64,000 nt of DNA from Candidatus Cloacimonadota bacterium (lineage in GTDB: Bacteria > Cloacimonadota > Cloacimonadia > Cloacimonadales > TCS61), in assembly GCA_021157525.1 (NCBI GenBank), contig JAGGWK010000016.1:1836-65835 (forward strand), written 5' to 3'. Below the pieces are notes generated by a model. It had not been told where the DNA came from and searched no databases. It worked only from the letters and a program-made list of their open reading frames with translations. Positions 10,870 through 30,326 of this stretch are shown here, piece after piece. Position 1 is the stretch's first letter, and the number at the start of each line of letters is the position of its first letter. The position numbers and the translations under genes are program-made.

Positions 10870-10942
10870 ATTTTCCTCCAATTCCATTTAAAAAAAATTG
10901 GGCAGAAGATTATCTCAAATCTTCCGCCCAAGGTGTTCTCTG

Positions 10943-11328: not shown

Positions 11329-11749
11329 ATGAAACAAATAATGATAATTCTCAGTTGTCCGGCCATCGTCGGCTGCAGCCGGCTTTCTCACCGGGAGGTT
11401 ATCAGGATGCAGGGAATTCCCGGCTTTACGCTGCAGCGGATGCCGGGGCATTTCATGCTTTTTGTGGGGGTTGTTGATGATACTATTTATGCCATTCATG
11501 TGCTGTAACGCTATCAGCAGGTGGATGAGAAACTGATAACCAATCGGGTACCAAACCGGGTTTGGTTTATGAGGGCTTCCCACAATTCACAATTCCACAT
11601 TTATGTCTTCCAACCGGAAGCAAAATCTTGACTCCATGGAGGCTCTTTTGCAGATGGATGCCAAAATCACTTCTGGCTATGAGCACTACGATCTGGCGGC
11701 GATGGATCGGTTTGTTGAGGTGCTTCAACACAAAGGGGATGCATCCTGA
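11329..11749 (+). pseudogene. possible decayed gene remnant (NlpC/P60- or DUF1175-like C-terminal fragment?)
   Basis: A 60-codon ORF ending ...PGHFMLFVGVVDDTIYAIHVL stops at TAA 11506-11508. The same frame stays open for a further ~39 codons, and a second frame then reads ...LLQMDAKITSGYEHYDLAAMDRFVEVLQHKGDAS. No intact gene fills 11105-11921. Confidence 0.25.
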
Positions 11750-11921
11750 CAAAGGAAACCTGGTGCTGTGCGAAAGTGCCCAAAGCTTGTCTGAAGCGCA
11801 ATAATAGGAAGGTTTCGGGAGAAATGACAGTCCAATTCCCTAATCCGGCGAATTAAAATATCTTCACCCGCCTCCCATTGGAATAATACTTGCACAGTTA
11901 AGAAGGAATAAAGGGGGCTAT

Positions 11922-14900
11922 ATGAAAAGATTGGTGTGCGCTTTTACAATATTAATTGCGGGTCTGTGTCTTTCGGCTGAGCTGATTACCTTAGATGCAA
12001 ATGGTAACAAACCTCTCATCCAAAGCCATGAAATCTCTCCGACACAATCGATAATCGATTTTAACCTATACAGCTATGACCTTACTACCGAGATTGATAA
12101 CAGCACGGAATTCACCCGCATCTCCTGTCTGGGTGAAGGGGAAACCTACCAGATCGGGATGCCACAGCTTCCTGTCATTACCCGTTTTTTCGCCATTCCC
12201 GCCGGTGCCACCCTTTCGGTGTCTGTGGAGTCTGTTGACACAGAGACCATCACCAACGCAAAAGCCTTCCCCCGGCAACCTGAAAATGCTCAGATATCCG
12301 GAGCAACATCGTTTACTATCGATAATGAATTTTACAGTTCCAATCAGATATTCCCTGCAACCACGGTAGAAGTGGGGGGAAGCGGCATCTTCCGGGATGT
12401 ATCCGTGGCTATGGTTTCTTTCTACCCCTTCCGGTACAATCCCCAAAGCAATAGCATAGAAGTCATTACAAATGCTCAATTGCGGGTGGACATCAGCGAA
12501 GCGGGCAGGGTGATCGAACCACAGCGCAAGATTTCCCGCGCCTTTGAATCAATCTACAAAAAGATGATATTAAATTATGACGACATTTCCCGGGATGCAG
12601 AATATCAGCAACCCTGCTATCTTTTTATCACTCCAGACGATAGCCAGGTTCTTCCGGTGCTGGAAACTCTTACCGACTGGAAACGGCAGATGGGCTGGGA
12701 TGTAACTGTGGCAACAACAGCAGAAACAGGTACCAGTCTCAGTAGCATAAAAAACTATATCCAAAATGCCTATAACTTCTGGGATAATCGCCCCGAATTC
12801 GTTTGCCTGGTTGGCGACGCATCCGGGTCTTATGATATTCCCTGCGGTTTCCAAAATTCGGGAAACAGCGACTATGTTTACACTTTACTGGATGGAAACG
12901 ACCTCTACCCCGAAGTGGCTATTGGCCGCCTTTCCTTCGGCACGGTTTTTGACTTGCAAACAATCGTCAGCAAAATTTTGCAGTATGAAAAAACTCCCTA
13001 CATGGGAAACACCGACTGGTATGAGCACGCTCTCCTGGTGGGGGATACCTCCAGCTCGGGACAATCCTGCATCGACACAAACCTCTATATCAAAAGTGTT
13101 ATCGATTATAATCAGCCCCAATTCGATTTTTACGAAGTCTATAATTCTCCCTTTGTTACTCAGATGACTGCCGCCTTTAATGCCGGAGTAAGCTATTTTA
13201 ATTACCGTGGATATATCGGCATGAGCGGCTGGGGTACCGGTGATGTGAATAATCTTACCAATGGCCTGATGTTGCCTGTTGCCGTCAATCTTACCTGCGG
13301 AACGGGAAATTACTCCAGCGGCACCAGCATGAGTGAAGCCTTCCTTCGGGCCGGAACTCCATCGGCTCCCAAAGGCGGAATTGCCGGTATTGCCACCGCC
13401 ACCTCCTCTACCCATACCACCTTTAATAACAGTGTTTGCGCCGGCATTTTTTCCTCAATATTCTCCGACCATGTAGATAACCTCGGAACTGCTTTGGTGG
13501 GCGGAAAACTCAACATGTACCGCAGTTTTCCCCAGAATCCTTCAAATTGGGTAACAAAATTCTGCCACTGGAACAACCTGATGGGAGATCCGGGTATGAA
13601 GGTGTGGACAGCGGTCCCCGAGCAGATATTTGCAATATCTGAGAGTGAAATTGCCGTAGGCCAGAATTTTTACACCGTAGATGTAACTCACGGTCTGGGC
13701 ATCCCTCTGCAAGATGCCTGGGTTACTCTCTATCGAGAAAGTGATGGTTTTCAGGAGAGTGGCTATACCGATGAGAATGGTCGGATTGTCCTTCCCTGCC
13801 TTACGACCCTGGCCGAAGATTTTACTCTCACCGTTACCGGAAGTAACTGCATTCCCATACAAAATACCATCACTGTTTCTCAGCAAGCCGCCTTCTGCAA
13901 TGTGGAGTCATACAGCATAGATGACGATGGCAATGGTAGTTCCAACGGCAATGGCGATGGGATGATTAATCCCGGAGAAACCATCGAATTGACCATTGAA
14001 CTGCGGAACAGCGGAACCCAGAGTGTATCCGGAGCTTCTGCCGTGCTCAGCACAATTTCTCCCTTAGTCACCATCATCAGCGGAAATGCAGACTTTCCCA
14101 CCATCCCCGCCGGCTCTTCCGCATCCAGTTCTGCTCCCTGCGTGATAGCATTTTCTGCCGACGCCATCGGCGAAACCGATTTCGATGTAGCCATCTCTGA
14201 TAACGGCAACAATAACTGGGCAGATATTTTACAACTCCCGGTGGCCGCACCGCTGCTGCAGGTTACCGATGTGGATGTACTGGACATGGGCAACAACATC
14301 CTCGATCCCGGGGAAACCGCAAACTTGGCTATCACCATTACAAACAGCGGCCCCATGAATGAAACTACTTTGGATGCAGTGTTGCATATTCCCCATACAG
14401 AACTCACCGTGACTGACAGCATCGGCGCCTACAGCGGCATCAATGCCGGAGCTTCTACATCCAATGTTCTTAATACTTTTACGGTGGAGGCAAGTTCGCA
14501 ACTTTATCCGGGGATGCAGATACCTGCCACCCTTACGGTGGAAAACACCAACGGCACAGTGCGAGAGCTCGCCTTTTTGATAGAAATCGGCACCGTAACT
14601 CAGGGAGATCCACTGGGCAGCGATGCCTATGGATACATCTGTTTTGACGATGGCGATATAAACTATGCGGCAGCACCCACCTACGATTGGATTGAAATCG
14701 ACCCCACTTTCGGCGGTGCCGGCTCCCACCTTTCCCTGAACGATTCCGGGGATATGGGCGCCATTACCACCATTAATATGCCCTTTATTTTTATGTTTTA
14801 CGGACAGATCTACGATGACCTTACCATATGCACAAACGGCTGGATAAGCCCGGGTGATAGTGACAACAGAGATTATATGAACTGGCCGGTGCCCGGACCA

Positions 14901-16862
14901 CAGGGGCCTTCACCCATTATCGCCGCCTTCTGGGATGACCTGACCACCTCCGGCGGCCACGTGTGCACCTATCACGACGAAACAGCCCACGTGTTCATCA
15001 TCGAGTGGTCAGACATGAAAAATGATTATGACGGCTCCAGCGGTGAGACCTTCGAGATCATTATTTACGATCCCGCCTACTATCCTACCTCCACCGGGGA
15101 TTGTGAGATTCTGATTCAATACAAGGAATTTAACAATGTGAATGTAGGAACCTACAATGGTTACCACGTTTATCAGGGTCAGTATTGCACGGTGGGAATA
15201 GAGGATGCATCCGGTACGCAGGGATTGCAATACTCCTTTAACAACACCTACCCCACTGCTGCCAAGCCTCTGCAAGACGAATCGGCCATCTTTTTTACCG
15301 TAAACAGCGGCGCAGTTCTTCAGCCACCGGTTATCTCTTTGAGCACAGACAGCCTCTATTTTGCCGTCGATCAAACCGGCACCTATCAGCAGAACTTTAC
15401 CATCGCAAATCTGGGGGAAGCCACAATGATGTACTCCATCGACCGCTACTATGTGGATGGCGGGCAAACCCGGAACTCCGGTGGCCCTGATGACTTTGGG
15501 CACATGTGGTTTGACAGTACCGAGCCTAACGGCCCCGTATTTAATTGGCGGGAACTCCCCACCAGCGCTACGGAGGTTACCTTTGTCCACAATGACCAGG
15601 GCACAGACCTTATGCCCATCGGTTTCGACTTTCCCTTCTACGGCACGAATTATTCGCAGTTCCGCATCAATCCCAATGGATGGATCGGTTTCGGCGATGA
15701 CTGCACTGCCTGGAATAACCTGTCCCTCCCGCATCCTGATGCTCCCCGTCCGGCCATTATGCCCTTCTGGGATGACCTCGATCCCATCACCACGGGTCAT
15801 GTGTATTACCAAAGCTATACCGACAGCCTCATCGTGTGGTTTGATGGTGTAGATCACTACTCGGGTAACTACAACGGCAATTACACCTTTCAGATAATCA
15901 TCTACAGCGATGGTGATATGCGGCTGCAATATCTCACGATGACAGGTGACATAAACAGTGCCACCATCGGCATCCAGAATGAAGATAACAGCGATGAACT
16001 GCAGCTCTCGTACAACACCACCTTTGTGCAGGATAACATGGCCGTGGAGATCAAGCGGGTTGTAGATTGGGCTACCATAAGCCCGGAAAGCGGGATCATT
16101 CCCGGGGGCGAAGCTGCCACAATTGGCGTTCAGGTAGAGCCGCAGATGCTTCTGCTGGGATCCTATATGTGCCGCCTCTCTATCACCTGTAACGATCCTA
16201 ACCAGACCGTGACGTTCCTCCCCGTTGTGATGGATGTGGTGGGGGATATTTCAGCGATTTCTCTTTCCCAAGATGCTGTTGACTTTGGCTCGGTACCTAT
16301 TACTACCACCAGCACAGATACTCTGGTTATCCAAAATTTGGGGACAGCAAACCTGGAGATCAGTGAAATTGCTTGCTCAAATGATGTATTTTCTGTGGCA
16401 CAAACCAGCTACACCATCCTGCCTTACGAAAGTGCAGAATTGTATATCTCATTCGAACCGGTGGAATTGGGCGCTCAGACTGCAGATATCACCATTTTCT
16501 CAAACGATCCCGACGATCCTGAATATGTAATCTCTGCCCAAGGCGTGGGAACCGACAATACCGGATCGGGTAATCCGGTACCGCTGCCTACCGCCTATTA
16601 CCAGAATTACCCCAATCCTTTCAATCCCGAAACCACCCTGGCCTTCAGTCTGGGCGATGCGCAATCGGTGAACCTGAGTATCTTTAATGTAAAAGGGGAA
16701 AAGGTGAAAACCCTTGTTGACGCTGATTTTGCCCCGGGAAGATATGAAATCCTCTGGAACGGCACCGACGCCAAAGGGCGAACCGTTGCCAGTGGTCTTT
16801 ACTTCTCCCGCTTCCAGGCGGGCAGTAAAGTTTCCATAAAGAAAATGATGTTATTAAAATAA
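11922..16862 (+). CDS. giant secreted multidomain protein: gingipain-like peptidase C25 module, CARDB-like Ig domains, two NIDO-like modules, a choice-of-anchor-D-like domain and a T9SS C-terminal sorting domain
   Basis: Signal peptide. C25 propeptide-type segment (GMPQLPVITRFFAIP). C25 core motifs (YLFITPDD, IKNYIQNAY, FVCLVGD, SDYVYT, AIGRLSF, LTCGTGNY). C-terminal YYQNYPNPFNPETT...KKMMLLK. Confidence 0.85.
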   Translation: MKRLVCAFTILIAGLCLSAELITLDANGNKPLIQSHEISPTQSIIDFNLYSYDLTTEIDNSTEFTRISCLGEGETYQIGMPQLPVITRFFAIPAGATLSVSVESVDTETITNAKAFPRQPENAQISGATSFTIDNEFYSSNQIFPATTVEVGGSGIFRDVSVAMVSFYPFRYNPQSNSIEVITNAQLRVDISEAGRVIEPQRKISRAFESIYKKMILNYDDISRDAEYQQPCYLFITPDDSQVLPVLETLTDWKRQMGWDVTVATTAETGTSLSSIKNYIQNAYNFWDNRPEFVCLVGDASGSYDIPCGFQNSGNSDYVYTLLDGNDLYPEVAIGRLSFGTVFDLQTIVSKILQYEKTPYMGNTDWYEHALLVGDTSSSGQSCIDTNLYIKSVIDYNQPQFDFYEVYNSPFVTQMTAAFNAGVSYFNYRGYIGMSGWGTGDVNNLTNGLMLPVAVNLTCGTGNYSSGTSMSEAFLRAGTPSAPKGGIAGIATATSSTHTTFNNSVCAGIFSSIFSDHVDNLGTALVGGKLNMYRSFPQNPSNWVTKFCHWNNLMGDPGMKVWTAVPEQIFAISESEIAVGQNFYTVDVTHGLGIPLQDAWVTLYRESDGFQESGYTDENGRIVLPCLTTLAEDFTLTVTGSNCIPIQNTITVSQQAAFCNVESYSIDDDGNGSSNGNGDGMINPGETIELTIELRNSGTQSVSGASAVLSTISPLVTIISGNADFPTIPAGSSASSSAPCVIAFSADAIGETDFDVAISDNGNNNWADILQLPVAAPLLQVTDVDVLDMGNNILDPGETANLAITITNSGPMNETTLDAVLHIPHTELTVTDSIGAYSGINAGASTSNVLNTFTVEASSQLYPGMQIPATLTVENTNGTVRELAFLIEIGTVTQGDPLGSDAYGYICFDDGDINYAAAPTYDWIEIDPTFGGAGSHLSLNDSGDMGAITTINMPFIFMFYGQIYDDLTICTNGWISPGDSDNRDYMNWPVPGPQGPSPIIAAFWDDLTTSGGHVCTYHDETAHVFIIEWSDMKNDYDGSSGETFEIIIYDPAYYPTSTGDCEILIQYKEFNNVNVGTYNGYHVYQGQYCTVGIEDASGTQGLQYSFNNTYPTAAKPLQDESAIFFTVNSGAVLQPPVISLSTDSLYFAVDQTGTYQQNFTIANLGEATMMYSIDRYYVDGGQTRNSGGPDDFGHMWFDSTEPNGPVFNWRELPTSATEVTFVHNDQGTDLMPIGFDFPFYGTNYSQFRINPNGWIGFGDDCTAWNNLSLPHPDAPRPAIMPFWDDLDPITTGHVYYQSYTDSLIVWFDGVDHYSGNYNGNYTFQIIIYSDGDMRLQYLTMTGDINSATIGIQNEDNSDELQLSYNTTFVQDNMAVEIKRVVDWATISPESGIIPGGEAATIGVQVEPQMLLLGSYMCRLSITCNDPNQTVTFLPVVMDVVGDISAISLSQDAVDFGSVPITTTSTDTLVIQNLGTANLEISEIACSNDVFSVAQTSYTILPYESAELYISFEPVELGAQTADITIFSNDPDDPEYVISAQGVGTDNTGSGNPVPLPTAYYQNYPNPFNPETTLAFSLGDAQSVNLSIFNVKGEKVKTLVDADFAPGRYEILWNGTDAKGRTVASGLYFSRFQAGSKVSIKKMMLLK

Positions 16863-16874
16863 GTAGGAGCGAAT

Positions 16875-19856
16875 ATGAAGCAGTTTAGTGTAATTGTGCT
16901 ATTATTGATCGTGGGCCTGTTGCCCGCGCAAATGTATTGGGAAAACGATGGTTTGCCGGTGAGGCAGGGAGTGAATATTGAGTGGTTCCGGTCTTCTGCA
17001 CAAGTGGGCACCGATATCGTTTATGGATGGTCTGATACCCGTCGCGGCGACCGCGACATCTGGGCTCAGCGTATCGATAGCGACGGCAACTCGGTGTGGC
17101 AGGACGGCGGTGTAATGATCAACGGCTATGTTAACCGCCAGGAAGACATCGTGCTTATCCCGGTGGGAAATGACGAAGTGATCTGTGCCTGGATAGACTT
17201 CCGCAATGGCGATGACGGTGACGTCTATGCTCAAAAGCTGGATGGCACCGGTAACCTGATGTGGAATGCTGAAGGTGTGCCGCTGTGCCTCGATCCTGAC
17301 GAACAAATTTCTCTTAATATCGTGAGCGACGACAATGGCGGCGCCTTCGTGATATGGATAGACAGCCGTAATTCCGGTGGTGTGGACATCTTTGGTACTC
17401 ATATTCTGGCAAACGGCACCATCGCCGCAGGGTGGGACGTAAATGGTAATTCCATCGTGGCCGAAAGTGGCCCTCAAAACGGCCATACCTTCTGGGAAGA
17501 TGGCAATGGCGGTGCCGTGCTTGCATGGCATGACGAACGGGATCCCAATAACCCGAGCATTTACATGCAGCGTATCGCACCGGATGGCACTCTGATGTGG
17601 AATGCCGGCGGCAACGAATTGTGCGTGGTAAACGGCGAGCAAACCAATGTAAAAATGGCTCTCCTCACCAATGGAAACATGTTTTTTACCTGGCGTGACA
17701 AACGCTCTGATGCCGACGGAAATCTCTATTGCCGCGCGGTTGCCTTGGATGGCACCTTTGTGTATGACGAAACAGTGGTGTACGCAGGCAGTGGTATTCA
17801 GCGTAACCCCCGTGCTGCTTCAGGTTCGGATGGCAGCGCCTTTGTGGTGTGGGAAGATGGTCGAAGTGACTTTTATTTCAAAGACATTTATGCTCAGAAG
17901 ATAAATGCCGACGGTTCCCTTGCCTGGGATCCAGCCGGTGTGGTAGTGAGTGATGCCGATAATGATCAGCTGAATCCCCGGCTTTTTGGGGATGATAGCG
18001 GCGGAACCTGGATCATCTGGGATGACGCCCGAGGATCTGGTTACCCCGAATTGGACATCTATGTGCAACACCTCAATGCCGATGGGAGCCCACAATTAAC
18101 CGCCAATGGTCAATTGCTGTGCAATGCCCCCGGAGAACAATTTGCTCCCCTTATCAAGGATGCAGGGAATGGACGGATTTATGCCAATTGGGGCGATAAC
18201 CGTACCGGCTCTACCGGTATTTACCTGCAGATTTTAGATAGCAATGGCAACGAACTGCTCGGAGCCAATGGCGAAGAACTCTGGTATGGCCTCTGCGGCG
18301 ATGCGATAAATTATCAACTGCTCATTGCCGATGAAAAACCGGTGATAACCTGGATAGATACACGTAAATCAGTAATCGCTAACCAGATTTATATGCAGGT
18401 ACTCAATCCCGATGGCACAAACATCCTCACTCCCGATGGAGAACCGATAACCAACATGACCAACTACAATCAGGAAAACATGGATGTGGTCTATGGCAAC
18501 GGGTTGGTCGCTGCATCATGGGAAGAAAATCGTGGAGACTTCAAACAGATCTATGCTCAGGCGGTAGATTTGAACAATAACTACATTTGGTCTGCCGATA
18601 CCGGCCTGTTGGTGGGTGACGTGTATGCTCAGCAAGAATTCACCAAGATTGATGCAAGTGGCGACAATTTTAACATCGGCTGGTCGGATTATCGCGACTG
18701 GATGAACGGCTTTGAAATCTACGGCCAGAAAATTGACGCCGATGGCAATCTGCTGTGGGGCGCCGAAGGCAAACTTATTGCATCCAATGCAGGTGACGAT
18801 GTACTGGCTGATGTGGTGGGAAATTACTACATCTGGCAAGGTGGTGACCTCTATGACCAGGATATCTATGTGAAAAAAGTGGATGACGATGGTAACACCG
18901 CAGCAGGATGGCCGGCTGCCGGCTTGGTAGTGTGTGCTGCGCCAGACAATCAGGAAAAAGCATCCGGTATGATGACTCCTGACGGATTGCTGATCGTGTG
19001 GCGGGATAAGCGGGATGGAAACTTTGATATCTATGGCCAGATTGTTCAGCCTGACGGCACCTTCTTATGGACCGATGATGGCCTGCCTCTGGTTCAGGTA
19101 GAAAACGATCAGGATAATTTCCAGTTTGTCTATTCCACAGATATCGCAATGGTATGGGAAGATTTTCGCAACGGTGTTTACTACGACATCTACATGCAGC
19201 GCTTTAATGACAACGGTGCAGAATTATGGCAGGAAGATGGCATCAGCGTGATACAGAAAAACAGCGACCAAGTGTCACCTGCTATCACCACAGACGGCGA
19301 GTTTTACTTTGTTTTCTGGGAAGATTACTCCATCGAATCTGAATCCAATCTCTATGGACAGAAATTTACCCTTGATGGCACCAAGTGGTGGAATCCCGAT
19401 GGCAAACTGATCAGTGACGCCATCCGTAACCAAAATGCGCCGGTAGCTCATACCGATGGTAACGGTAACATCTATGTGATCTGGGAAGATACCCGCTCCA
19501 GCGGCAAAACCGATATCTACAACATCTATGCGCAAAAAATCGATGTGGATACGTCGGTTCATCCCAATGAGCCAGCTCCGGCAAACCATGTGATTTCCCA
19601 AAACTATCCAAATCCCTTCAATGGCAACACCAGCATCTCCTTCGATCTGAACCAAAGCATCTATCCCGGTGCTCAGCTGAAAATATACAATGTTCGTGGT
19701 CAGCTGGTGCGCAATCTGCAACCGGCCGGCAACAGCAATTTCAGCTGGGATGGCCGTGATAACAAAGGTTCAGCAGTTGCCGAAGGCATTTATATGTATC
19801 GTCTTGAAGCCGATTCCTTTACATCGGCACCCCGTAAAATGGTTCTTTTGAAATAG
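16875..19856 (+). CDS. secreted repeat protein (about 16 propeller-blade-like repeats) with a T9SS C-terminal sorting domain
   Basis: Signal peptide. There are 16 copies of a unit of ~55-60 aa centred on D-I-Y-A-Q-K-I-D-x-D-G-x-x-x-W. The tail is QNYPNPFNGNTS...RKMVLLK. Confidence 0.8.
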   Translation: MKQFSVIVLLLIVGLLPAQMYWENDGLPVRQGVNIEWFRSSAQVGTDIVYGWSDTRRGDRDIWAQRIDSDGNSVWQDGGVMINGYVNRQEDIVLIPVGNDEVICAWIDFRNGDDGDVYAQKLDGTGNLMWNAEGVPLCLDPDEQISLNIVSDDNGGAFVIWIDSRNSGGVDIFGTHILANGTIAAGWDVNGNSIVAESGPQNGHTFWEDGNGGAVLAWHDERDPNNPSIYMQRIAPDGTLMWNAGGNELCVVNGEQTNVKMALLTNGNMFFTWRDKRSDADGNLYCRAVALDGTFVYDETVVYAGSGIQRNPRAASGSDGSAFVVWEDGRSDFYFKDIYAQKINADGSLAWDPAGVVVSDADNDQLNPRLFGDDSGGTWIIWDDARGSGYPELDIYVQHLNADGSPQLTANGQLLCNAPGEQFAPLIKDAGNGRIYANWGDNRTGSTGIYLQILDSNGNELLGANGEELWYGLCGDAINYQLLIADEKPVITWIDTRKSVIANQIYMQVLNPDGTNILTPDGEPITNMTNYNQENMDVVYGNGLVAASWEENRGDFKQIYAQAVDLNNNYIWSADTGLLVGDVYAQQEFTKIDASGDNFNIGWSDYRDWMNGFEIYGQKIDADGNLLWGAEGKLIASNAGDDVLADVVGNYYIWQGGDLYDQDIYVKKVDDDGNTAAGWPAAGLVVCAAPDNQEKASGMMTPDGLLIVWRDKRDGNFDIYGQIVQPDGTFLWTDDGLPLVQVENDQDNFQFVYSTDIAMVWEDFRNGVYYDIYMQRFNDNGAELWQEDGISVIQKNSDQVSPAITTDGEFYFVFWEDYSIESESNLYGQKFTLDGTKWWNPDGKLISDAIRNQNAPVAHTDGNGNIYVIWEDTRSSGKTDIYNIYAQKIDVDTSVHPNEPAPANHVISQNYPNPFNGNTSISFDLNQSIYPGAQLKIYNVRGQLVRNLQPAGNSNFSWDGRDNKGSAVAEGIYMYRLEADSFTSAPRKMVLLK
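16935..19550 (+). repeat. in-frame tandem array of ~16 diverged coding repeats (period ~165-180 nt)
   Basis: Motif series: DIWAQRIDSDGNSVW, DVYAQKLDGTGNLMW, SIYMQRIAPDGTLMW, DIYAQKINADGSLAW, DIYVQHLNADGSP, GIYLQILDSNGNE, QIYMQVLNPDGTN, EIYGQKIDADGNLLW, DIYGQIVQPDGTFLW, DIYMQRFNDNGAELW, NLYGQKFTLDGTKWW, NIYAQKID and others. Confidence 0.7.
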
Positions 19857-19864
19857 GAGTTGGG

Positions 19865-22159: not shown

Positions 22160-22171
22160 AGTGAGGACTAT

Positions 22172-25100
22172 ATGAAAAAACTGACATTCCTGGCCATCGC
22201 GTTGCTTCTTATCGCAGGCTTGGCGGCCCGTTTTGAGTTTACCGGTGACGATGCCCAATTGCAGTTCACCTACTATAATGATGACTTGCAGGATACCAGA
22301 GATGCCGAAGTGGCTATCGTGGCACTGCCTGCTACCGACGTAACCATCTCTGTGGATCAGGCCCAATGTGCCATCTACGACGCTGCGGGAAATTACCTGC
22401 GAGACGAAACCCTGCGTGGTGACGACGTGGTAGAGATCACCGATCACTTTGTGATGCGGGAACTCTATGGCCACACATTGCGGGTAAATAAAGTGCGTCA
22501 GACCGATGACCTGAAAATCGTGGTAAAATCGGTAGAGGGTCAGATGCAGGCTGCATCCAGACTGGACGTTCCCGCTTCCGTGTCTCAAGCTTTTTTGCAA
22601 GTGTATAAAAACACGGTAGATAACTTTGATATTTCTTATCTTTCCCGTGCCGAAGTAGCGCCATCCCGAATGCTGATAATTACACCTTCGGGGCTGGAGC
22701 AGTATGTTCAGCAGTTGGCTCAATGGAAAAATCAGCGGGGCGTACTTACGGAAATCGTTCATCTGGAAGACGTTGGTACTACAAATGTGGAAATCAAAAA
22801 TTATATCCAAAATGTGTATAATACGCAGGATACACCTCCGGATCATCTGCTCATTATCGGTGATGTGGATATGCCATACTCCTTTCCCACTTTCCTCATC
22901 GACGGCAATGTGGGACGTGAGATGGATGTAACCGACCTTCCTTATACGTTGTTGGATGGCACCGATTATTTCCCTGAGATGATCTATGGCCGGATCTCGG
23001 TGGATGCTCCCATGGAGATGATGATCGTCATCAACAAAATTCTCAACTACGAAAAAACGCCCTACATGGATGATCCGGACTGGTTTGAACGAGCCCTGGT
23101 TGTGGCTGGAAACTTCAGTAATTCACCACCTGTCCCCACCACTCCTGTATCAGTGAGCCGATGGTTGAAAGAAAAATTTGTGGATTATGGGTATCAGCAG
23201 GTGGATGAAGTGTATTATCCACCTACCGCCAACGGCGTGGTTCCCATCTCTAATGCCTTGGATAACGGTGTGGGATTTGTCACCTATCGGGGCTGGGGAA
23301 ATGCCCACGGCTGGAATTATCCCTATTTCCACGAAGAAGATGTAAACAATCTGAACAACGGCTGGAAATTACCGGTGATGACCTCTGTGGTCTGTAACAC
23401 CGGTGACTTTGGGAATATCAACGTGGATCCCTGTTTTGGTGAAAAATGGCTCCGTGCCGGTACCACACCCACCTCTCCAAAGGGCGGTGTGGCTTTTGTT
23501 GGCCCATCCGACCTTCATACCAGTACCAGGCTCAATAACAGCATTTTTGCCGGTTTCTGGACTGGCGTATTGGATGAAGGTATCCGTGAATTCGGCGTTG
23601 CCGTACTCCGTGGAAAGATGGAATTATACCGTAATTTCCCCAACGATCAAGGGGCAGACGGTTATGTGAATTTCTATTTTCACGTGTATAACGTTATCGC
23701 AGATCCCAGCCTGATGATGTGGACGAAAACCCCACAACCCATTACAGCATCCCTGCCTGCCTCAGTTACCATAGGAACCAATCTTATCACCATAGATCTT
23801 CCCGGACTGGACGGTGCCGTTGCTACCGCCTACAAGCAGGATGAATATTGCAATGCCGTGACAGTGGAAAATGGCGTAGCTTATCTTCCGCTAAATTCTA
23901 CTACTGAGGGTGAGGTGATCGTTACCATCACCAAACCGGATTATCTGCCTCTGGAAACCACTATCCCAATCACTCAGGAAGCAGAAGATATTGGCGTGTC
24001 AGACATTTCACCTCAGGGAGATGTAATTGCCGGCACCACTGTGGATGTAGCCATTACTCTGCAAAACTATGGAACCAGCGCTGTGAGTGGCGTAACAGCT
24101 AACCTCAGCACCGATAATGCCTTGGCTGTGGTGCAAACGACTTCCGCATCTTACGGCGATATCGCCGCCGGAGCCAGCGCAACGCAAAACTTCACGATAG
24201 CCCTGGATCCCCAGATTCCCGATAACATGGCCATTATCTTTGACGTGGAAATCCCCGGATTTGGCCCGGCAAAATTTTCCCTTCACGTAGGTAGCCTGGC
24301 TTTCGACGTTACATCGGTAGTGGTAAATGATGCCAATGGCGTGCTTGATCCCGGCGATACCGCCGACATCACCGTCACTCTGAAAAATATCGGCAGCTTC
24401 GATACCACTGTGGATGCCGCTTTGACGGCCATCACCACCGGCGCTGAAGTAACTCAGGCAAACGGCGGAAATCACACCGTTGCCGTGGGGGCCAGCTTCG
24501 ACGCTACTTTCACGGTTCATGTGTTTGTTGACTGCTACATAGGCAGATCCCTTCCCTTTGATGTGGAGCTTACTTCCAGTAGTGCACAACAATCTGTCGC
24601 CCGGGTAAACCTTACTGCCGGTATTATTGATAATACTGCTCCCACCGGCCACGACTGGTATGGTTACTGGGCCTATGACAGCAACGATACCGACTTTGAT
24701 CAGGCGCCTGTGTATGAATGGCACGAAACTGATCCGGAAAATGGCGGGAGTGGCTCAGTTATCAGCCTGACAGATGACGACACCCAGTCCATTCCACTGC
24801 CCTTCCCATTTACCTACTACGGCAATGAATATGACAGCCTGAGTGTGTGCTCCAATGGCTGGGTTTCTTTTGAGACCACTTGGTATCACGACTTTACAAA
24901 CTGGACGATTCCCTGCCCGCTGGGACCATACGCCATGATCGCCGCCTATTGGGATGACCTGAAAGGCGAAAGCTATATGGTGGGTGACAGCACTTTCTGG
25001 CATGATATCCGTGTAACCTACGACTATCTGGAAAGCGACAATATCTTTGTTATCCAATGGAACGATCTGTACAACAGGCTGGATGACGTTACCGAATATG

Positions 25101-25654
25101 CCTTCCAGCTGGTGCTTTACGATCCGGCTCATTATCCGGTGCAAAGTGGTGATGGCATTATTCAGGTGAACTACCAATCCATCAACAACCCGGATAACGA
25201 AAATAACTACACGACCGTAGGAGTAGAAAATGCCAACCAGCAAGATGGTCTCCTCTATACCTTCGCCAATATCTATCAGCCGGGAGCATCGGAATTAGCC
25301 AACAACATGGCCATCCGCTTTACTACTGAAGCTCCCGATGGATACACCCCGGCAGGGCATACCACCGTCCCGGCTGCTCTGGTAACCCTCCAACAAAATT
25401 ATCCCAATCCGTTTAATCCCGTTACTACCATCAGCTATTCCATACAGGATGCAGGAAACGTGGAGCTTATCGTGTACAATGTTCGTGGCGAGAAAGTGCG
25501 CACCCTCGTGCAGGAAACAATGGAAGCCGGCACCCACAAAGTGGTGTGGAACGGTATAGATGATAACGAAAATGCTGTGGCCAGTGGCATCTATTTCTAT
25601 CGCATCGTCACAAAAAACAGCTCAATCACCAAAAAAAGTCTGTTATTGAAGTAG
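22172..25654 (+). CDS. secreted gingipain-like peptidase C25 family protein with CARDB-like domains, one NIDO-like module and a T9SS C-terminal sorting domain
   Basis: MLIITPSG, IKNYIQNVY, HLLIIGD, TDLPYTLLDG, IYGRISV, YRGWGNAHGW and SVVCNTGDF. The tail is QQNYPNPFNPVTT...KKSLLLK. It is a paralog of 11922..16862. Confidence 0.85.
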   Translation: MKKLTFLAIALLLIAGLAARFEFTGDDAQLQFTYYNDDLQDTRDAEVAIVALPATDVTISVDQAQCAIYDAAGNYLRDETLRGDDVVEITDHFVMRELYGHTLRVNKVRQTDDLKIVVKSVEGQMQAASRLDVPASVSQAFLQVYKNTVDNFDISYLSRAEVAPSRMLIITPSGLEQYVQQLAQWKNQRGVLTEIVHLEDVGTTNVEIKNYIQNVYNTQDTPPDHLLIIGDVDMPYSFPTFLIDGNVGREMDVTDLPYTLLDGTDYFPEMIYGRISVDAPMEMMIVINKILNYEKTPYMDDPDWFERALVVAGNFSNSPPVPTTPVSVSRWLKEKFVDYGYQQVDEVYYPPTANGVVPISNALDNGVGFVTYRGWGNAHGWNYPYFHEEDVNNLNNGWKLPVMTSVVCNTGDFGNINVDPCFGEKWLRAGTTPTSPKGGVAFVGPSDLHTSTRLNNSIFAGFWTGVLDEGIREFGVAVLRGKMELYRNFPNDQGADGYVNFYFHVYNVIADPSLMMWTKTPQPITASLPASVTIGTNLITIDLPGLDGAVATAYKQDEYCNAVTVENGVAYLPLNSTTEGEVIVTITKPDYLPLETTIPITQEAEDIGVSDISPQGDVIAGTTVDVAITLQNYGTSAVSGVTANLSTDNALAVVQTTSASYGDIAAGASATQNFTIALDPQIPDNMAIIFDVEIPGFGPAKFSLHVGSLAFDVTSVVVNDANGVLDPGDTADITVTLKNIGSFDTTVDAALTAITTGAEVTQANGGNHTVAVGASFDATFTVHVFVDCYIGRSLPFDVELTSSSAQQSVARVNLTAGIIDNTAPTGHDWYGYWAYDSNDTDFDQAPVYEWHETDPENGGSGSVISLTDDDTQSIPLPFPFTYYGNEYDSLSVCSNGWVSFETTWYHDFTNWTIPCPLGPYAMIAAYWDDLKGESYMVGDSTFWHDIRVTYDYLESDNIFVIQWNDLYNRLDDVTEYAFQLVLYDPAHYPVQSGDGIIQVNYQSINNPDNENNYTTVGVENANQQDGLLYTFANIYQPGASELANNMAIRFTTEAPDGYTPAGHTTVPAALVTLQQNYPNPFNPVTTISYSIQDAGNVELIVYNVRGEKVRTLVQETMEAGTHKVVWNGIDDNENAVASGIYFYRIVTKNSSITKKSLLLK

Positions 25655-25661
25655 AGAAATT

Positions 25662-26828
25662 ATGCTGGGATTAATACTGGGATTATTCTTATTGATTGGT
25701 TTTGCCAGTGTGGAATATCATCGGCACCTATACTATCGTAGCCGGATTCCCCATGTTGTGCATATTAACGGCACCCGAGGCAAATCCAGTGTAACCCGTT
25801 TGATCGCCGCCGGACTTCGTGCCGGCGGCCTGAAAACTATAGCCAAGACCACCGGGTCGGCACCGCGCCTGATCTTTGAATCGGGCAATGAAACACCGAT
25901 TAAACGGCATTTCGGAGCCAATATCAAAGAGCAGCTCAAGATTATCAAGTATGCATCCAAACGAGATGCCGAAGTACTGGTGCTGGAATGCATGGCCGTT
26001 ACCCCGGAATATCAGTGGGTGGCCGAACACAAAATGGTACGCTCCACCGTGGGGGTAATGACCAATTGCCGCCTGGATCACCTGGATGTGATGGGACCCG
26101 GCCTGAGAAATTGCACCCTCTCACTGTGCAATACTATTCCCACCAACGGCAAAATGTTCACCTCGGAAAACTATGTTTTTCCATTGATGAAGAAAGTGGC
26201 GGATAAACAGGGAACCGAGATTTTCTATGCTGATCCCAGGACGATCAGTGATGAGGAGATGCAGGGCTTTAATCACATCGAGCACAAAGAAAATGTTTCT
26301 CTGGCTCTGGATGTGTGCGCTCAGTTTGGTGTGCCTCGCAAGGTTGCTCTGGAGGGGATGTATAAAGCAATCCCGGATATCGGAGCTACCGAAGTGTTTC
26401 ATTATACTAAGCATCATAAAGATGTGCTTTTTGCCCACTCCTTTGCCGCCAATGATCCACAGTCAACTCGGGTGCTGCTGCAATACATCCCCAAGCTTTA
26501 TAAGGATATCGATGCCATCTCGCTGGTGCTGAACACTCGTGCAGATCGTATCTATCGTTCGAAGCAGCTTATCGATATGCTGGCAGATATGGATTTTGAT
26601 CAGTTGATATTGGTGGGACAGCAAACCAATGCCATGCGTCAATATGCAGCCCAACGAAAGATTCCGATGAACAAAGTGCATGACATCGGCTGGGCTACGG
26701 GAGATGAAGTGGCGGAAGAGGCCATGAAAATAAAGGCATCCAGAATATTGCTGTTTGGCATTGGAAACATCGGTGGCAACGGTGGATTAATAGTAGATTT
26801 TTTCAAAGAGAGGAATACAAATGTTTGA
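25662..26828 (+). CDS. pgsB: poly-gamma-glutamate synthase PgsB/CapB (Mur-ligase-like amide ligase)
   Basis: It is collinear with Bacillus PgsB as I recall it: N-terminal TM, INGTRGKSSVTRL (P-loop), KTTGS, PIKR, ECMAV.PEYQ, DHLDVMGP, FAANDPQST, NTRADR and GIGNIGG. Confidence 0.9.
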   Translation: MLGLILGLFLLIGFASVEYHRHLYYRSRIPHVVHINGTRGKSSVTRLIAAGLRAGGLKTIAKTTGSAPRLIFESGNETPIKRHFGANIKEQLKIIKYASKRDAEVLVLECMAVTPEYQWVAEHKMVRSTVGVMTNCRLDHLDVMGPGLRNCTLSLCNTIPTNGKMFTSENYVFPLMKKVADKQGTEIFYADPRTISDEEMQGFNHIEHKENVSLALDVCAQFGVPRKVALEGMYKAIPDIGATEVFHYTKHHKDVLFAHSFAANDPQSTRVLLQYIPKLYKDIDAISLVLNTRADRIYRSKQLIDMLADMDFDQLILVGQQTNAMRQYAAQRKIPMNKVHDIGWATGDEVAEEAMKIKASRILLFGIGNIGGNGGLIVDFFKERNTNV

Positions 26829-27270
26829 AGTAGCAATTGGCTTAGGTGTGCTGATCAGTCTGTTTTTTCTGGAAACCTTTGGCGCGGCAGCAGGGGGTAT
26901 TGTGGTGGCCGGATATGTGGCCATGTATTTGCATCAACCCTGGACCATTGCCGCCACCCTGATCATTAGCCTTTTGGTGTTTTTAATCGTAAAATTGCTG
27001 AGCAAAGTGATGTTTATGTATGGCCGTCGCCGCATGGTGATTTCTGTATTATTGGGCTTCATCCTGGGATGGGCAGCCCGTACGTACGGCCTCTTCTTTT
27101 TCTTGCCAGCCGACTATTCGGTGAACGTCATCGGCTTTATTATTCCCGGGCTTATCGCTAATTCCATGGAGCGCCAGGGTGCGCTTAAAACCCTCTCCAT
27201 CATGACTGTTGCAGCGGTGCTGGTGCGCCTGATCCTGGTGGTGTTGTTCGCCGGCAAATTAATCGGATAG
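26821..27270 (+). CDS. pgsC: poly-gamma-glutamate biosynthesis membrane protein PgsC/CapC
   Basis: A 149-aa multi-TM protein with GGIVVAGYVAMYL, MYGRRRM and GFIIPGLIANSMERQG, matching the Bacillus PgsC pattern. It overlaps pgsB by 8 nt. Confidence 0.9.
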   Translation: MFEVAIGLGVLISLFFLETFGAAAGGIVVAGYVAMYLHQPWTIAATLIISLLVFLIVKLLSKVMFMYGRRRMVISVLLGFILGWAARTYGLFFFLPADYSVNVIGFIIPGLIANSMERQGALKTLSIMTVAAVLVRLILVVLFAGKLIG

Positions 27271-27279
27271 GAGAGAAGA

Positions 27280-28383
27280 ATGTTTATTCCAAGTGCAAAA
27301 TCAAAACTGAGTCTCATCGTACTTTTGGTTGTTTCCATCGCTCTCTTTATCTGGGTAGATAGCAGCCGAACCTTTGTAAAAGAAAAATACTATCACGAAA
27401 AACTGGCCGCCGCCCAGCGTATGCAGCAAGCCATGGATGCAGTAAAAGGATATCGTGCCAGCCAGAACGTATTTATCGATGAGCAAAATGACCCGGGAAA
27501 AACCGGACTCATCGGCGAGAAGGAAACCCTTATCACCACAGACCGTGGGAGTCTTACGGCAAAGCTCACTACCCTCAATCCAAATCTGGCAGCGGCTGTA
27601 GTCGCTATGCTTAAAGAAGCCAAACTGCACAAAGGTGATCGTGTGGCTGTGAGCTGCACCGGATCCCTGCCAGCCGCCAATATGGCTGTGTATAGCGCCG
27701 CTGCTGTGCTGGGACTTGACCTCACCGTCATTACATCGGTGGGAGCTTCCATGTTTGGTGCCAACGACCCGCAATTTACCTGGCTGGATATGGAACGGTT
27801 TTTCAATGAGCAGGGCATCTTTCCCTATCGCAGTATCGCAGCCTCTATGGGTGGCGGGCGCGACCTGGGCCGTGGCCTCAACCTTGCTGGTCGTGCGCTT
27901 ATAGAAGACGCAATCAAACGGAATGAAGTGGAGCTGGTTCATGAAGTGAGCCTGGAGAAAAATATCAACCGTAAGATGGCTCTGTTTACTCAGGCATCAG
28001 ACAAGCCGGTGAAACTCTATATCAATATCGGTGGCGGACTTTCCAGTCTGGGAAATTCGATAAACGGGCGCCTGGTACCTCCGGGATATCATCGTTATGT
28101 TTCGGTGAAAAACATCCCCCTCAAGGGTACGATGTTTCTCTATGCAGAGCAGGGTGTCGGCGTGATACATCTGTTGGATATACCACAGATTGCCAGCAAG
28201 TACGATCTGCCCACAGCTCCGGATCCTATTCCCCAACCCGGCACGGGACGCATGTTTGTGGATGAACGCTATAACGTCACCGTTGCCAGCATTGCTTTGG
28301 CACTGCTCCTCATCCTTATATTTACCGTGATCTTCTTTGACCATAAACAGCTCAAATTGAAAGAAGAGGAAATCAACATCTAA
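27280..28383 (+). CDS. membrane-anchored protein in the PgsA position; not CapA-like; tentatively the 'poly-gamma-glutamate system protein' family seen with PgsBC in non-Bacillus taxa
   Basis: It has N- and C-terminal TM helices. It lacks the CapA/PgsA metallophosphatase-like GDxMxGR signature. Its position is immediately after pgsC (9-nt gap). The family name comes from memory and has not been searched. Confidence 0.5.
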   Translation: MFIPSAKSKLSLIVLLVVSIALFIWVDSSRTFVKEKYYHEKLAAAQRMQQAMDAVKGYRASQNVFIDEQNDPGKTGLIGEKETLITTDRGSLTAKLTTLNPNLAAAVVAMLKEAKLHKGDRVAVSCTGSLPAANMAVYSAAAVLGLDLTVITSVGASMFGANDPQFTWLDMERFFNEQGIFPYRSIAASMGGGRDLGRGLNLAGRALIEDAIKRNEVELVHEVSLEKNINRKMALFTQASDKPVKLYINIGGGLSSLGNSINGRLVPPGYHRYVSVKNIPLKGTMFLYAEQGVGVIHLLDIPQIASKYDLPTAPDPIPQPGTGRMFVDERYNVTVASIALALLLILIFTVIFFDHKQLKLKEEEINI

Positions 28384-29255
28384 TGAAACAATTCTATATC
28401 ACCCTGCTACTGTGCGTTATCGGTGTTACACTGATGGCAGGTGAAATCACCGCCATCGGCTCTCACGATGATTACATGATTTATAACAAAACCAATTCAA
28501 AAATAGTGCGTTATCTGGAACTAAAGCCCCAAGCTTCCGTAACCTTTCATACGGTGAACATCAATTCCATCGACGTGCTTACCCGTTTGGTAATGCCATC
28601 GAACAAGGGGGTGGAATATCGGTACGAAATCGCCTTTGACGGTACTCGCAAGAAAATTACCAAAACGGCTCGTACCAGCAGAACATCCCAAGGGGTAAAT
28701 GGCGAAACGATATCAAAATACAACAAATTGTGCCAGGCCATCCCCCGCAATAACAAACAGGTAACCATTATCAACACATCGGCTTACACTCTGCTGGTGA
28801 AGATCAATTCAACCGAAATATCCCGTAGTACCAGAACCATAGACTACGTGGCCTACTCACCCGATGTGTACGATGCCGATACGGTGCTTAAACTGAATGG
28901 CCGGGAATTTACATACTATCATGGCGGGAAAATTTCCCTCACACTGGAAGGCCCAATCTATCTGAAAGTGTTCAGCCGCTTGCTGTTTGACAATAGTTAC
29001 ACTCCCAGCATGCACTACGCTTTTAATGTGTACGACAACAATACGCTGCTCAGAGCCTACACCGAAAAGGCCCATAAATCCCGGAACACCTGTTTGGTAG
29101 GGGATGCTACCATCATCCCGTCTACCGCAGATATAAATATCATCAGGCTGGATGCAGGTACGCACCACATTCGCATAGAAGATGGCGCGATCAATCGCAA
29201 TGTTATCTTTAAATTCTATATTAGCAAATCTGCTGTGGAAATCGAGTCCAAATGA
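28383..29255 (+). CDS. hypothetical secreted/periplasmic beta-rich protein, translationally coupled to the PGA genes
   Basis: Its ATG shares one base with the upstream TAA. Signal peptide MKQFYITLLLCVIGVTLMAGE. No family was recognised. Confidence 0.6.
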   Translation: MKQFYITLLLCVIGVTLMAGEITAIGSHDDYMIYNKTNSKIVRYLELKPQASVTFHTVNINSIDVLTRLVMPSNKGVEYRYEIAFDGTRKKITKTARTSRTSQGVNGETISKYNKLCQAIPRNNKQVTIINTSAYTLLVKINSTEISRSTRTIDYVAYSPDVYDADTVLKLNGREFTYYHGGKISLTLEGPIYLKVFSRLLFDNSYTPSMHYAFNVYDNNTLLRAYTEKAHKSRNTCLVGDATIIPSTADINIIRLDAGTHHIRIEDGAINRNVIFKFYISKSAVEIESK

Positions 29256-30268
29256 AAAGCTATATCCTTATAATGATCTTCCTCAGCTCACTTCTGTGGG
29301 CTACCGGCCTGAACTTTTCCCATCGTGTTTCCCTGGATACCTACTACACAGACAATGTCCTCAATCTCTCGGAGAGCAGTCTGGACGAGTTTGACGGCGG
29401 GACCCATCCGGAAAAATATGATCTGGAAACCTCTGATGACCTGGTGACCTCGGTACGGCTGTGGCTGGATGTAAAACATCGTTATGTGCTGGGCCATACC
29501 AGCATCCAGCGCCTCGTGCTGAAATTTGAAAAACATTGGAGCAATGATCTGCTGGACGGTGGCTACATTCAGCTTAAACACCGACAATACCTCAGCAAAT
29601 CGGTGCGGGTGATGGCAGATTATTTCTACTATCCCGAAATCTACGTAAACCAATACATCCCGGCTCTGAAGGATGTGGCGGATTACAAAGAATACAGTTA
29701 TGCTGAAAATGCCTGGCGCTGCACTGTGGAATGGGATGTGACGCCTGCTCTGGAGCTTGCTTATCGGGCAGAATTTACACAGAAATACTACAACAAATAT
29801 TTTACCGAGTATGATGCATCCGGCTTGAAACATCGGCTCGTCGCCAGCTATCGGGTGAGTGATAAGCTGAGGATTTCCGGCTTTGCGGCCTACGAATCCG
29901 ATGATGCTGATGGGGAAGATGCCTACCCGGATGTTTCGGCAATTACTCAGATAAAAGATGCATCTTACCAAGAAAATCAGACGGGGATTTCTCTGGATTT
30001 TGCTGTGACTCCATCCTGGAAGATCACTGCCGTTGCCCAGTATCAGATGCGCTTTTATCAAAGTGATGTGGCTGGCGATACCTATCATCTGGGACGGGAT
30101 GACTACCGCACGGACCTGCGGCTGGAAGTGGAGACATCTCAATGGAAAAATCTTCGCATCCAACCTTGGTGGCATCTGGAAAAACGGGAAGTTTCCTCAC
30201 CCTTTGCGGAGGTGAAGTCCGCTAAGGAATATGTTACCAACGAGATGGGCGTGACTGTCCGTTTCTAA
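29252..30268 (+). CDS. predicted outer-membrane beta-barrel protein, last gene of the PGA-linked operon
   Basis: ATGA overlap with the upstream gene. It has a signal peptide, pervasive alternating hydrophobic/polar strands rich in Y/W, and the C-terminus ...EMGVTVRF (terminal Phe, as in OMP sorting signals). Confidence 0.6.
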   Translation: MKSYILIMIFLSSLLWATGLNFSHRVSLDTYYTDNVLNLSESSLDEFDGGTHPEKYDLETSDDLVTSVRLWLDVKHRYVLGHTSIQRLVLKFEKHWSNDLLDGGYIQLKHRQYLSKSVRVMADYFYYPEIYVNQYIPALKDVADYKEYSYAENAWRCTVEWDVTPALELAYRAEFTQKYYNKYFTEYDASGLKHRLVASYRVSDKLRISGFAAYESDDADGEDAYPDVSAITQIKDASYQENQTGISLDFAVTPSWKITAVAQYQMRFYQSDVAGDTYHLGRDDYRTDLRLEVETSQWKNLRIQPWWHLEKREVSSPFAEVKSAKEYVTNEMGVTVRF

Positions 30269-30296: not shown

Positions 30297-30326
30297 GAAC
30301 CCGGCTTTTCGCCGGGATTCTTTTTT
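30297..30326 (+). terminator. rho-independent terminator closing the 11922-30268 gene run
   Basis: GAACCCGGC-ttttc-GCCGGGATTC followed by TTTTTT, 29 nt after the stop. Confidence 0.8.

Follow-up and report, generated by a model that had tools for sequence, protein, structure and literature searches.

A poly-gamma-glutamate locus of diderm bacteria recurrently linked to genes for type IX secretion cargo

Capsules and slimes of poly-gamma-glutamate (PGA) are understood almost wholly from Firmicutes, and how a diderm bacterium passes this polymer over its outer membrane, cuts it and retains it is essentially undescribed. A 64-kb stretch of DNA from a Candidatus Cloacimonadota bacterium (contig JAGGWK010000016.1, hereafter the window) raises this question, as its positions 11922–30268 hold nine near-abutting plus-strand open reading frames (ORFs; g1 to g9), of which the first four encode proteins with type IX secretion system (T9SS) sorting tails and the next two encode the PGA synthase subunits PgsB and PgsC. 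A first interpretation made from the letters and their translations (the sequence-only reading) had proposed that these genes form one transcription unit or functional island. Do T9SS cargo and PGA genes belong together, and if so, what might the cargo do?

Here, we find that comparative evidence supports the functional island well, that the T9SS-PGA linkage probably constitutes a true functional unit not described to date, and that the locus is best explained as a diderm version of the PGA locus, widespread in the Fibrobacteres-Chlorobi-Bacteroidetes (FCB) group. With modest confidence, we read it as a PGA synthesis and export module of diderm type whose T9SS cargo acts as an extracellular processing or anchoring arm, in place of the CapD and PgdS enzymes.

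When a single genome for each GTDB species was scanned with an alignment of PgsB, 80 loci were obtained, in which homologues of every window protein were located by tblastn after removal of the sorting tails from the queries. One related locus, L001 (all loci are labeled in this way), has a PgsB 84% identical to that of the window and carries the same nine genes at the same spacing. Cloacimonadota, Bacteroidales, Ignavibacteria/Chlorobiota and a marine lineage share a conserved core of five genes, pgsB-pgsC-g7-g8-g9: g7 was found in 79 loci and g9 in 59, while g8, detected by tblastn in 27, was recovered by profile comparison where tblastn failed (hhalign probability 100% in the Bacteroidales locus L042 and 99.5% in the marine locus L139). 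The PGA synthase module recognized by the sequence-only reading does have a PgsB/PgsC core, but it is in fact a set of five conserved genes that includes a TIGR04332 protein and a predicted barrel.

The cargo genes that most often accompany this core belong to peptidase family C25, represented in the cluster by g1 and g4. Of the 60 species-representative genomes whose upstream sequence was long enough for a verdict, 29 carry a full-length C25 gene that is directly upstream of, and co-directional with, pgsB; they span at least three phyla: 14 of 16 Bacteroidales/Bacteroidota, 4 of 7 Ignavibacteria/Chlorobiota, 9 of 25 Cloacimonadota, 2 of 6 unclassified genomes and 0 of 4 Flavobacteriia. In these 29 genomes the homology of the C25 gene to g4 covers the 450-aa region behind the catalytic domain as well as that domain itself, and in three more genomes pgsB has a C25 gene no farther than 10 kb away. 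Long C25 matches no more than 10 kb from pgsB number 36; every one shares the strand of pgsB, and for 30 the start lies 3.16–4.73 kb upstream. C25 genes were found only in loci with the g9 barrel (30/30 versus 17/27; Fisher p = 2e-4). The pgsB-anchored synteny search that the sequence-only reading had called for thus favors a functional island, and its counter-prediction, that pgsBC would never adjoin T9SS genes in relatives, is contradicted by the same 29 genomes.

Gene order varies among the loci that share these families. The order g1-g2-M14-g4, in which M14 is g3, occurs in the window, L001 and L096, with pgs genes next in the first two and the contig ending first in the third; L098 has g2-M14-g1-g4-pgs, and L100 has g2-M14-g1-g4 on a contig that ends ahead of any pgs gene. 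In L019 and L027 a g1-like gene is followed by a g4-like gene and then by pgsB; L057 reads C25-g9-pgsB-pgsC-g7; in L025 a C25 gene lies 7 kb downstream of pgsB; and the Bacteroidales order is C25-pgs. Eleven marine metagenome contigs (from Tara and other sources) are arranged as pgsB-pgsC-g7-g8-g9-(353-aa unknown)-g2-M14-C25, abutting and on one strand, and belong to a lineage that is abundant, or very frequent, in ocean metagenomes, its g7 cluster alone counting 430 member sequences. In all, the gene set occurs in at least four orders other than C25 directly upstream of pgsB. That the same cargo families were kept with pgs genes through independent rearrangements is the strongest argument for a functional tie of g2, M14 and C25 to the PGA module. 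Genetic linkage of g1–g4 to this module accordingly extends over several phyla and gene orders. As for the coupling of all four T9SS genes to pgs that the sequence-only reading saw, the C25 gene is widely linked, but g1, g2 and M14 only in narrower lineages.

Could this adjacency nevertheless be meaningless, the T9SS and pgs genes being neighbors through common descent or as passengers of a transferred island? Such an account is compatible with the absence of the linkage in about half of the genomes examined, and with the share of the Cloacimonadota signal that related genomes contribute. PgsB from the Bacteroidales or Ignavibacteria loci, however, is only 43–48% identical to that of the window, so that the C25-pgs adjacency must be ancient or have been transferred as a unit, and the linkage spans phyla at this divergence and outlasts at least four rearrangements, always co-directional. 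We therefore find adjacency without functional meaning scarcely credible. Within the 64-kb window, four of five T9SS-tailed genes lie inside the cluster, which, together with conservation elsewhere, places the arrangement beyond chance.

What, then, would the module do? The polymerizing step can be assigned from family membership. PgsB/CapB, the ATP-dependent amide ligase of PGA synthase, is encoded by g5 (25662–26828, plus strand as for all nine genes; 388 aa), which scores 412.4 bits against the PgsB equivalog TIGR04012 (cut-off 222.7) and carries a Mur_ligase_M domain and the invariant GTRGKS motif. The membrane subunit PgsC/CapC is encoded by g6 (26821–27270; 149 aa), with 119.5 bits against TIGR04011 (cut-off 96.45) and a PF14102 match. 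PgsB and PgsC would together polymerize glutamate at the inner membrane. Adjoining pgsC, as in 79 related loci, g7 (27280–28383; 367 aa) encodes a member of TIGR04332, "poly-gamma-glutamate system protein" (310.8 bits, cut-off 100), a family that had gone unnamed in the sequence-only reading. The closest named homologues of g5 and g7 are from Candidatus Cloacimonadota metagenome-assembled genomes (MAGs).

The AlphaFold2 model of g7 (pLDDT 87.6) consists of an alpha/beta domain between N- and C-terminal transmembrane helices, and by the positive-inside rule this domain should lie in the periplasm. The model has no meaningful structural neighbor in the PDB (best TM about 0.2), which leaves a PgsA-like fold unsupported. 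Domain scans that covered nearly all window ORFs of at least 150 aa detected no PgsA/CapA (PGA_cap), no GGT (CapD) and no NlpC/P60 (PgdS) domain, in agreement with the earlier statement that CapD and PgdS are absent here. Co-occurrence, topology and fold suggest that g7, anchored in the membrane at both ends, may replace the absent PgsA/CapA.

Two further core genes encode members of unnamed families. The first, g8 (28383–29255; 290 aa), always stands between g7 and g9 and encodes a basic protein (isoelectric point, pI, 9.3) with a signal peptide and no Pfam, NCBIfam or PDB match. The second, g9 (29252–30268; 338 aa), encodes a predicted 14-strand outer-membrane beta-barrel with a signal peptide and an aromatic C-terminus (VTVRF, ending in Phe). 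Its AlphaFold2 model forms a closed barrel (pLDDT 86.6, pTM 0.81) whose top Foldseek matches are OmpG/CymA (E 2e-9, TMq 0.5–0.57), with the PgaA and PelB barrels also listed. All g9 homologues are annotated "hypothetical" and none has a Pfam domain; profiles of g7, g8 and g9 gave nothing at E <= 1 against PDB chains. The g9 barrel is a candidate PGA exit channel, and from co-occurrence, topology and fold we infer that it and the basic, secreted g8 would convey the polyanion through periplasm and outer membrane; the other functional steps past the synthase, up to any action of the cargo on PGA, are proposals of the same kind.

Some loci depart from the core arrangement. In the Cloacimonadota locus L007, two small genes for PF05635 "23S rRNA intervening sequence protein" (11653–12030 and 13456–13854 of that locus) split the core between pgsC and g7 and again between g7 and g8. 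The Gemmatimonadota locus L033 has two tandem PgsC-like matches after pgsB (4283–5200), no g7, g8 or g9, and a different accessory set. At the Ignavibacteriales locus L053, C25 upstream of pgsB matches only as scattered fragments (at ~3100–6400), a pattern that suggests a frameshifted or decaying copy.

The four genes upstream of the core all encode T9SS cargo of type A, with C-terminal sorting domains (TIGR04183/PF18962) that score 23.8, 29.9, 37.4 and 40.5 bits for g1 to g4 against a TIGR04183 cut-off of 23. These tails and that of one more window protein are 38–53% identical to one another; no T9SS core genes lie within the 64-kb window. The T9SS would deliver g1–g4 to the cell surface, where they would cut, trim or fix the polymer and so fill the slot held by CapD (anchoring) and by PgdS and PghP (cleavage) in Firmicutes and their phages. 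All four are highly acidic (pI 4.05–4.34, with g1 at 4.05) and only g8 is basic, on which ground we reject that the cargo binds PGA by bulk positive charge.

The clearest enzyme among them is g3 (19865–22159; 764 aa), a carboxypeptidase-T-like M14 zinc carboxypeptidase (PF00246, 118 bits) with CarboxypepD_reg and MAM-like domains ahead of its sorting tail. Aligned to carboxypeptidase T, it keeps the HxxE motif (as HAEE), the NRN motif and the catalytic Glu, and on our reading the third zinc ligand might come from a WHS motif that is offset from the alignment; judged by these residues the enzyme is probably active. A role for g3 as an exo-gamma-glutamyl carboxypeptidase is plausible. The preceding gene, g2 (16875–19856; 993 aa), encodes a protein with no recognized catalytic domain. 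Beyond the type A sorting tail and a weak, sub-threshold GH43-like/beta-propeller signal at residues 787–913, this internally repetitive sequence gave no usable domain or PDB match. Its orthologues accompany the M14 gene beside pgs genes in three gene orders, and a binding or scaffold protein is a plausible interpretation. The Bacteroidales locus L042 encodes a T9SS-tailed protein with a sortilin/BNR-like beta-propeller upstream of its C25-pgs core (3324–6014) and an LVIVD-repeat beta-propeller protein downstream of it (15005–16015); both may be counterparts of g2.

The two remaining cargo proteins carry C25 domains of an unusual kind. Next to its signal peptide, C25 propeptide, C25 domain and type A sorting tail, g1 (11922–16862; 1646 aa) has several domains of Ig-like, NIDO-like and choice-of-anchor-D type, with orthologues in the same clusters of L001, L096, L098, L100 and L136. 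In g4 (22172–25654; 1160 aa), of the cargo genes the one most widely linked to pgsB, a C25_C Ig domain comes after the C25 domain and precedes a conserved stretch of some 450 aa (residues 600–1070, with a NIDO-like signature) and the sorting tail. Both belong to C25 by fold and sequence (PF01364 at 189 bits for g1 and 212 bits for g4), and g4 aligns with RgpB and Kgp over about 430 residues (E 5e-32). These scores, like those for M14, PgsB, PgsC and the T9SS tails, support the domain assignments already made from the letters.

The catalytic Cys of RgpB is invariant in the pgs-linked C25 proteins aligned with it (C408 in g4), whereas the His of the canonical His-Cys dyad (His211 and Cys244 in RgpB) is gone. 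At the position of His211, part of a GHG motif in RgpB, the Cloacimonadota g4 type has W375 (YRGWGNAHGW), g1 has Y (YRGYIG) and the Bacteroidales and Ignavibacteria orthologues have E (YRGEGW); RgpB Glu152 and the Arg-binding Asp163 are likewise unconserved in these His-less proteins. A His-Thr pair is found instead in a loop aligned with RgpB residues ~280–285, with H449 of g4 in SDLHTST, NTHTTYNN in Bacteroidales and STHTTFNN in g1; this loop forms part of the S1 pocket. Among 118 distinct C25 ORFs pooled from the PgsB scan and a second, C25-seeded scan described below, about 111 form the His-less subfamily, none with the canonical His, and 106 of these retain both the Cys and the His of the HT loop. 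Invariant basic residues are specific to the subfamily, R373 beside the lost His and K289 and K482 elsewhere in the C25 domain. The label "C25 peptidase" given to g1 and g4 by the sequence-only reading is correct as to family, but both domains are without the canonical catalytic His.

How are these proteins to be understood? We read their conserved residues as a putative non-canonical active site rather than simple decay, though they could also be binding-only proteins. It is plausible that g1 and g4 act on PGA as non-canonical hydrolases, as transpeptidases or as PGA-binding tethers. A bolder proposal, which we consider distinctly unlikely, is that they would constitute a new catalytic class of clan CD (Cys with a relocated His), namely surface PGA transpeptidases that fix the PGA capsule to the outer membrane or T9SS cargo to PGA.

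A related possibility is a sortase-like coupling, in which a Cys acyl-enzyme like that of the T9SS sortase PorU would be resolved by an amine and thereby join PGA to a surface acceptor or cargo to PGA, with PGA as surface anchor in the role that anionic lipopolysaccharide (A-LPS) has in Porphyromonas. There are precedents: CapD anchors PGA by transpeptidation (PMC3815933), and PorU is a Cys-dependent transpeptidase (PMC5121618, PMC8545088). The nucleophilic Cys of the cluster proteins is invariant while their general acid/base His is rearranged, and PorU (NF033707) is the best NCBIfam match of their C25 domains, though far below its cut-off. With 75.5 bits for g1, 76.5 for g4 and 111 for the highest-scoring orthologue against a cut-off of 420, an identification of g1 or g4 as PorU itself is rejected, and g1 and g4 have ordinary cargo tails, unlike PorU. 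PorU is reported to retain its tail. We regard sortase-like coupling as doubtful and quite improbable.

A third account would have the cargo and the PGA module as co-regulated surface traits, with no direct action of the one on the other: g1–g4 would be ordinary nutritional or adhesive enzymes of protein-fermenting bacteria, encoded beside the capsule genes as members of one envelope, biofilm or particle-attachment program, where a hydrated PGA layer might, for example, retain or protect the enzymes or shield the cell from them. Three loci speak for it: upstream of pgsB, L069, L076 and L081 have C25 genes of the canonical, gingipain-like kind, which retain the His, Cys, Glu and Arg-pocket Asp, and a general association of proteases with capsules fits these better than a PGA-specific enzyme does. 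T9SS peptidases are also common in these genomes, one example being the C10 peptidase at 53836–56286 of the window, and unrelated T9SS-tailed genes stand beside the pgs loci L007, L008 and L042.

The reverse search bears on the same account. We seeded a metagenome scan with a C25 alignment and looked for pgs genes around each match to a g4-like C25 gene. The pgs genes were immediately downstream in 3 loci (and in 2 more in part) and upstream, in the marine order, in 11; 16 had none over flanks of at least 9.5 kb on the upstream and 2 kb on the downstream side, 28 had none downstream and a short upstream flank, and 20 were not judgeable. L136, for example, has g1-g2-M14-g4 followed by unrelated genes on the downstream side that could be seen. 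A g4-type C25 subfamily dedicated to pgs loci is rejected by this result: the His-less subfamily extends beyond the pgs loci, its adjacency to them being facultative, and its many members without pgs neighbors count in favor of co-regulated traits. Against this account, it is a fixed set of three or four cargo families, rather than T9SS cargo of any sort, that follows pgs through rearrangements and across phyla, with an extreme bias of strand and position, and loss of the canonical His is unexpected in enzymes for bulk protein degradation. We judge it rather unlikely and retain the processing or anchoring arm as our preferred reading.

Several observations weigh against that preference. The canonical catalytic His is lost, so the C25 domains may be inactive, and the acidity of all four cargo proteins makes simple electrostatic binding of a polyanion unlikely. 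The linkage is facultative: the flanks seen (about 10 kb) of at least 16 g4-like C25 genes hold no pgs genes, C25 adjoins pgsB in only the 9 of 25 Cloacimonadota and in none of the four Flavobacteriia counted above, and in one genome, where L097 and L007 lie on one contig, C25 is about 39 kb from pgsB. The pairing of C25 and M14 proteins as T9SS cargo is known apart from PGA, in the gingipains and CPG70 of Porphyromonas, and the literature searched held no account of PGA production by members of these phyla.

Are the nine genes transcribed as one unit? Their coordinates and all eight junctions agree exactly with those given by the sequence-only reading: +12, +8, +12, +7, -8, +9, -1 and -4 nt from g1 to g9. 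A GGAG/GAGG-like purine run precedes seven of the nine starts, those of g8 and g9 being weak or distant, which bears out the ribosome-binding-type sequences described at most starts. The sole all-GC, strong plus-strand hairpin with a T-tract closes the cluster at 30300–30326, with the stem-loop CCCGGC-TTTTC-GCCGGG at 30300–30316 and the T-tract to about 30326, so the earlier claim that none occurs before 30297–30326 holds as well; terminator-like matches within the cluster are weak, lie inside coding sequence and number 18 against 19.1 expected from shuffles. Upstream, about 800 nt (11105–11921) contain no credible gene, only short ORFs (one of 109 aa has no Pfam match), and are presumed to be the promoter region; sigma-70-like promoter matches were as frequent as in shuffled sequence and hence uninformative. 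The tight junctions and single terminator fit one operon. In several Cloacimonadota (L004, L018, L019, L022 and L027), a gap of about 600 nt with a small ORF separates C25 from pgsB, where the window has 7 nt, and an internal promoter is therefore possible in those loci. In L004 the ORF in this gap (9472–9984) encodes 170 aa without a family.

The surroundings of the cluster are varied. A plus-strand phosphate-uptake operon at 4676–9585 (two tandem PstS-like binding proteins, pstC, pstA, pstB and phoU) ends about 2.3 kb upstream of it, and is followed on the minus strand at 10477–11101 by a gene for a 136-aa NifX/NifB-like (Nitro_FeMo-Co) protein and a 52-aa Gly/Arg-rich ORF, with a very strong hairpin between them (10898–10931; 14-bp stem and T-run). 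Downstream of the cluster is a gene for a CPBP/Rce1-like membrane protease, and just past the cluster, at 31777–33969 on the minus strand, lie three genes with DUF2089 helix-turn-helix/zinc-ribbon and SHOCT-like domains. A 569-aa ORF at 36978–38687 (plus) fuses PdxA, of pyridoxal phosphate biosynthesis, to an S-adenosylmethionine-methyltransferase domain; a 306-aa ORF without family match overlaps it on the minus strand (36906–37826), and one of the pair is probably no gene.

Farther along, the plus-strand block at 41115–53763 is devoted to starch or maltodextrin utilization, with two alpha-amylase-family enzymes, an ATP-binding cassette sugar transporter (binding protein, two permeases and a MalK-like ATPase), two proteins with a glucodextranase SLH-like C-terminal module and a 600-aa protein without a family. 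The fifth T9SS-tailed protein of the window, encoded at 53836–56286 (minus), is the C10 (streptopain-like) cysteine peptidase mentioned above; besides an N-terminal inhibitor domain of the Spi/I69 type it has a CarboxypepD_reg domain, and its tail is ~44–53% identical to those of g3 and g4. A single 720-aa ORF at 58942–61104 (plus) joins a patatin-like phospholipase domain to an Omp85-superfamily barrel domain.

What would follow from the linkage? For each step that a diderm needs beyond polymerization the locus supplies a candidate, namely the TIGR04332 protein, the basic periplasmic protein, the new barrel family and the T9SS-delivered C25 and M14 proteins, and its carriers range from Cloacimonadota of anaerobic digesters and anoxic waters to Bacteroidales, Ignavibacteria and the marine lineage. 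If the link is functional, PGA would join the surface structures serviced by the T9SS, a large His-less branch of the gingipain family would gain a purpose, and new PGA-modifying enzymes of biotechnological interest could be expected. Were the His-less C25 proteins indeed transpeptidases, they would give diderms their own equivalent of CapD anchoring, dependent on the T9SS, and many uncultured FCB bacteria, the abundant marine lineage included, would be PGA-coated by way of a 14-strand barrel.

How does the locus compare with systems already known? The Bacillus pgsBCA(E)-pgdS and B. anthracis capBCADE operons share with it the PgsB/PgsC core, and such cap/pgs operons encode their own secreted PGA-anchoring or PGA-cleaving enzyme, CapD or PgdS (PMC3815933). 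In contrast to these Bacillus-type operons, the window locus is without PgsA/CapA, PgsE, CapD (GGT) and PgdS (NlpC/P60), has TIGR04332 instead, and adds an outer-membrane barrel and a basic secreted protein in an organism that is diderm; for processing, its candidates are C25 and M14 proteins with the tails of T9SS cargo. Among Gram-negative bacteria, Fusobacterium nucleatum is described as the first PGA producer (Candela 2009, as cited in PMC4497714 and PMC3815933). Also close to the present locus is the TIGR04332-type PGA system, as g5–g7 pass all three curated models and MAG annotations from Cloacimonadota and Bacteroidales already name these genes. CapBC in Cloacimonadota has been noted before, with no link to C25 (PMC8542988). 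Beyond that system go the g8 and g9 families, the linkage with C25, M14 and g2, and a g7 fold without PDB counterpart. The literature searched holds no mention of these families or of this linkage, and full-text searches retrieved no paper that links T9SS cargo to PGA, as the sequence-only reading had supposed.

On the side of the cargo, Porphyromonas RgpB and Kgp share the C25 fold, the type A sorting tails and an M14 carboxypeptidase as co-cargo. CPG70 is that M14 T9SS cargo protein of Porphyromonas. The present proteins differ from RgpB in that His211, Glu152 and Asp163 are unconserved and the HT-loop His lies in another loop, and from the Porphyromonas cargo in the large conserved NIDO-like C-terminal region of g4 and in the linkage of their genes to PGA. 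The phage enzyme PghP, a zinc peptidase related to carboxypeptidase A, hydrolyzes the gamma-glutamyl bonds of PGA (PMC4497714); we liken g3 to it as a zinc carboxypeptidase by class, not by sequence comparison, and g3 differs in being of the carboxypeptidase-T-like M14 type, with several domains over its 764 aa and a T9SS tail. For the export step, g9 resembles OmpG/CymA, PgaA and PelB in fold (Foldseek E 2e-9 to 2e-7, TMq 0.45–0.57), at 9–11% identity and with no PDB or Pfam sequence match, and PgaA and PelB are, like g9, encoded with a polymer synthase. In contrast to them, g9 has no periplasmic tetratricopeptide repeat domain, and its proposed substrate is a polyamide rather than a polysaccharide. 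The synthase core and TIGR04332 thus belong to known systems, and it is a so far undescribed diderm periphery, for export and for processing, that this locus would add to them.

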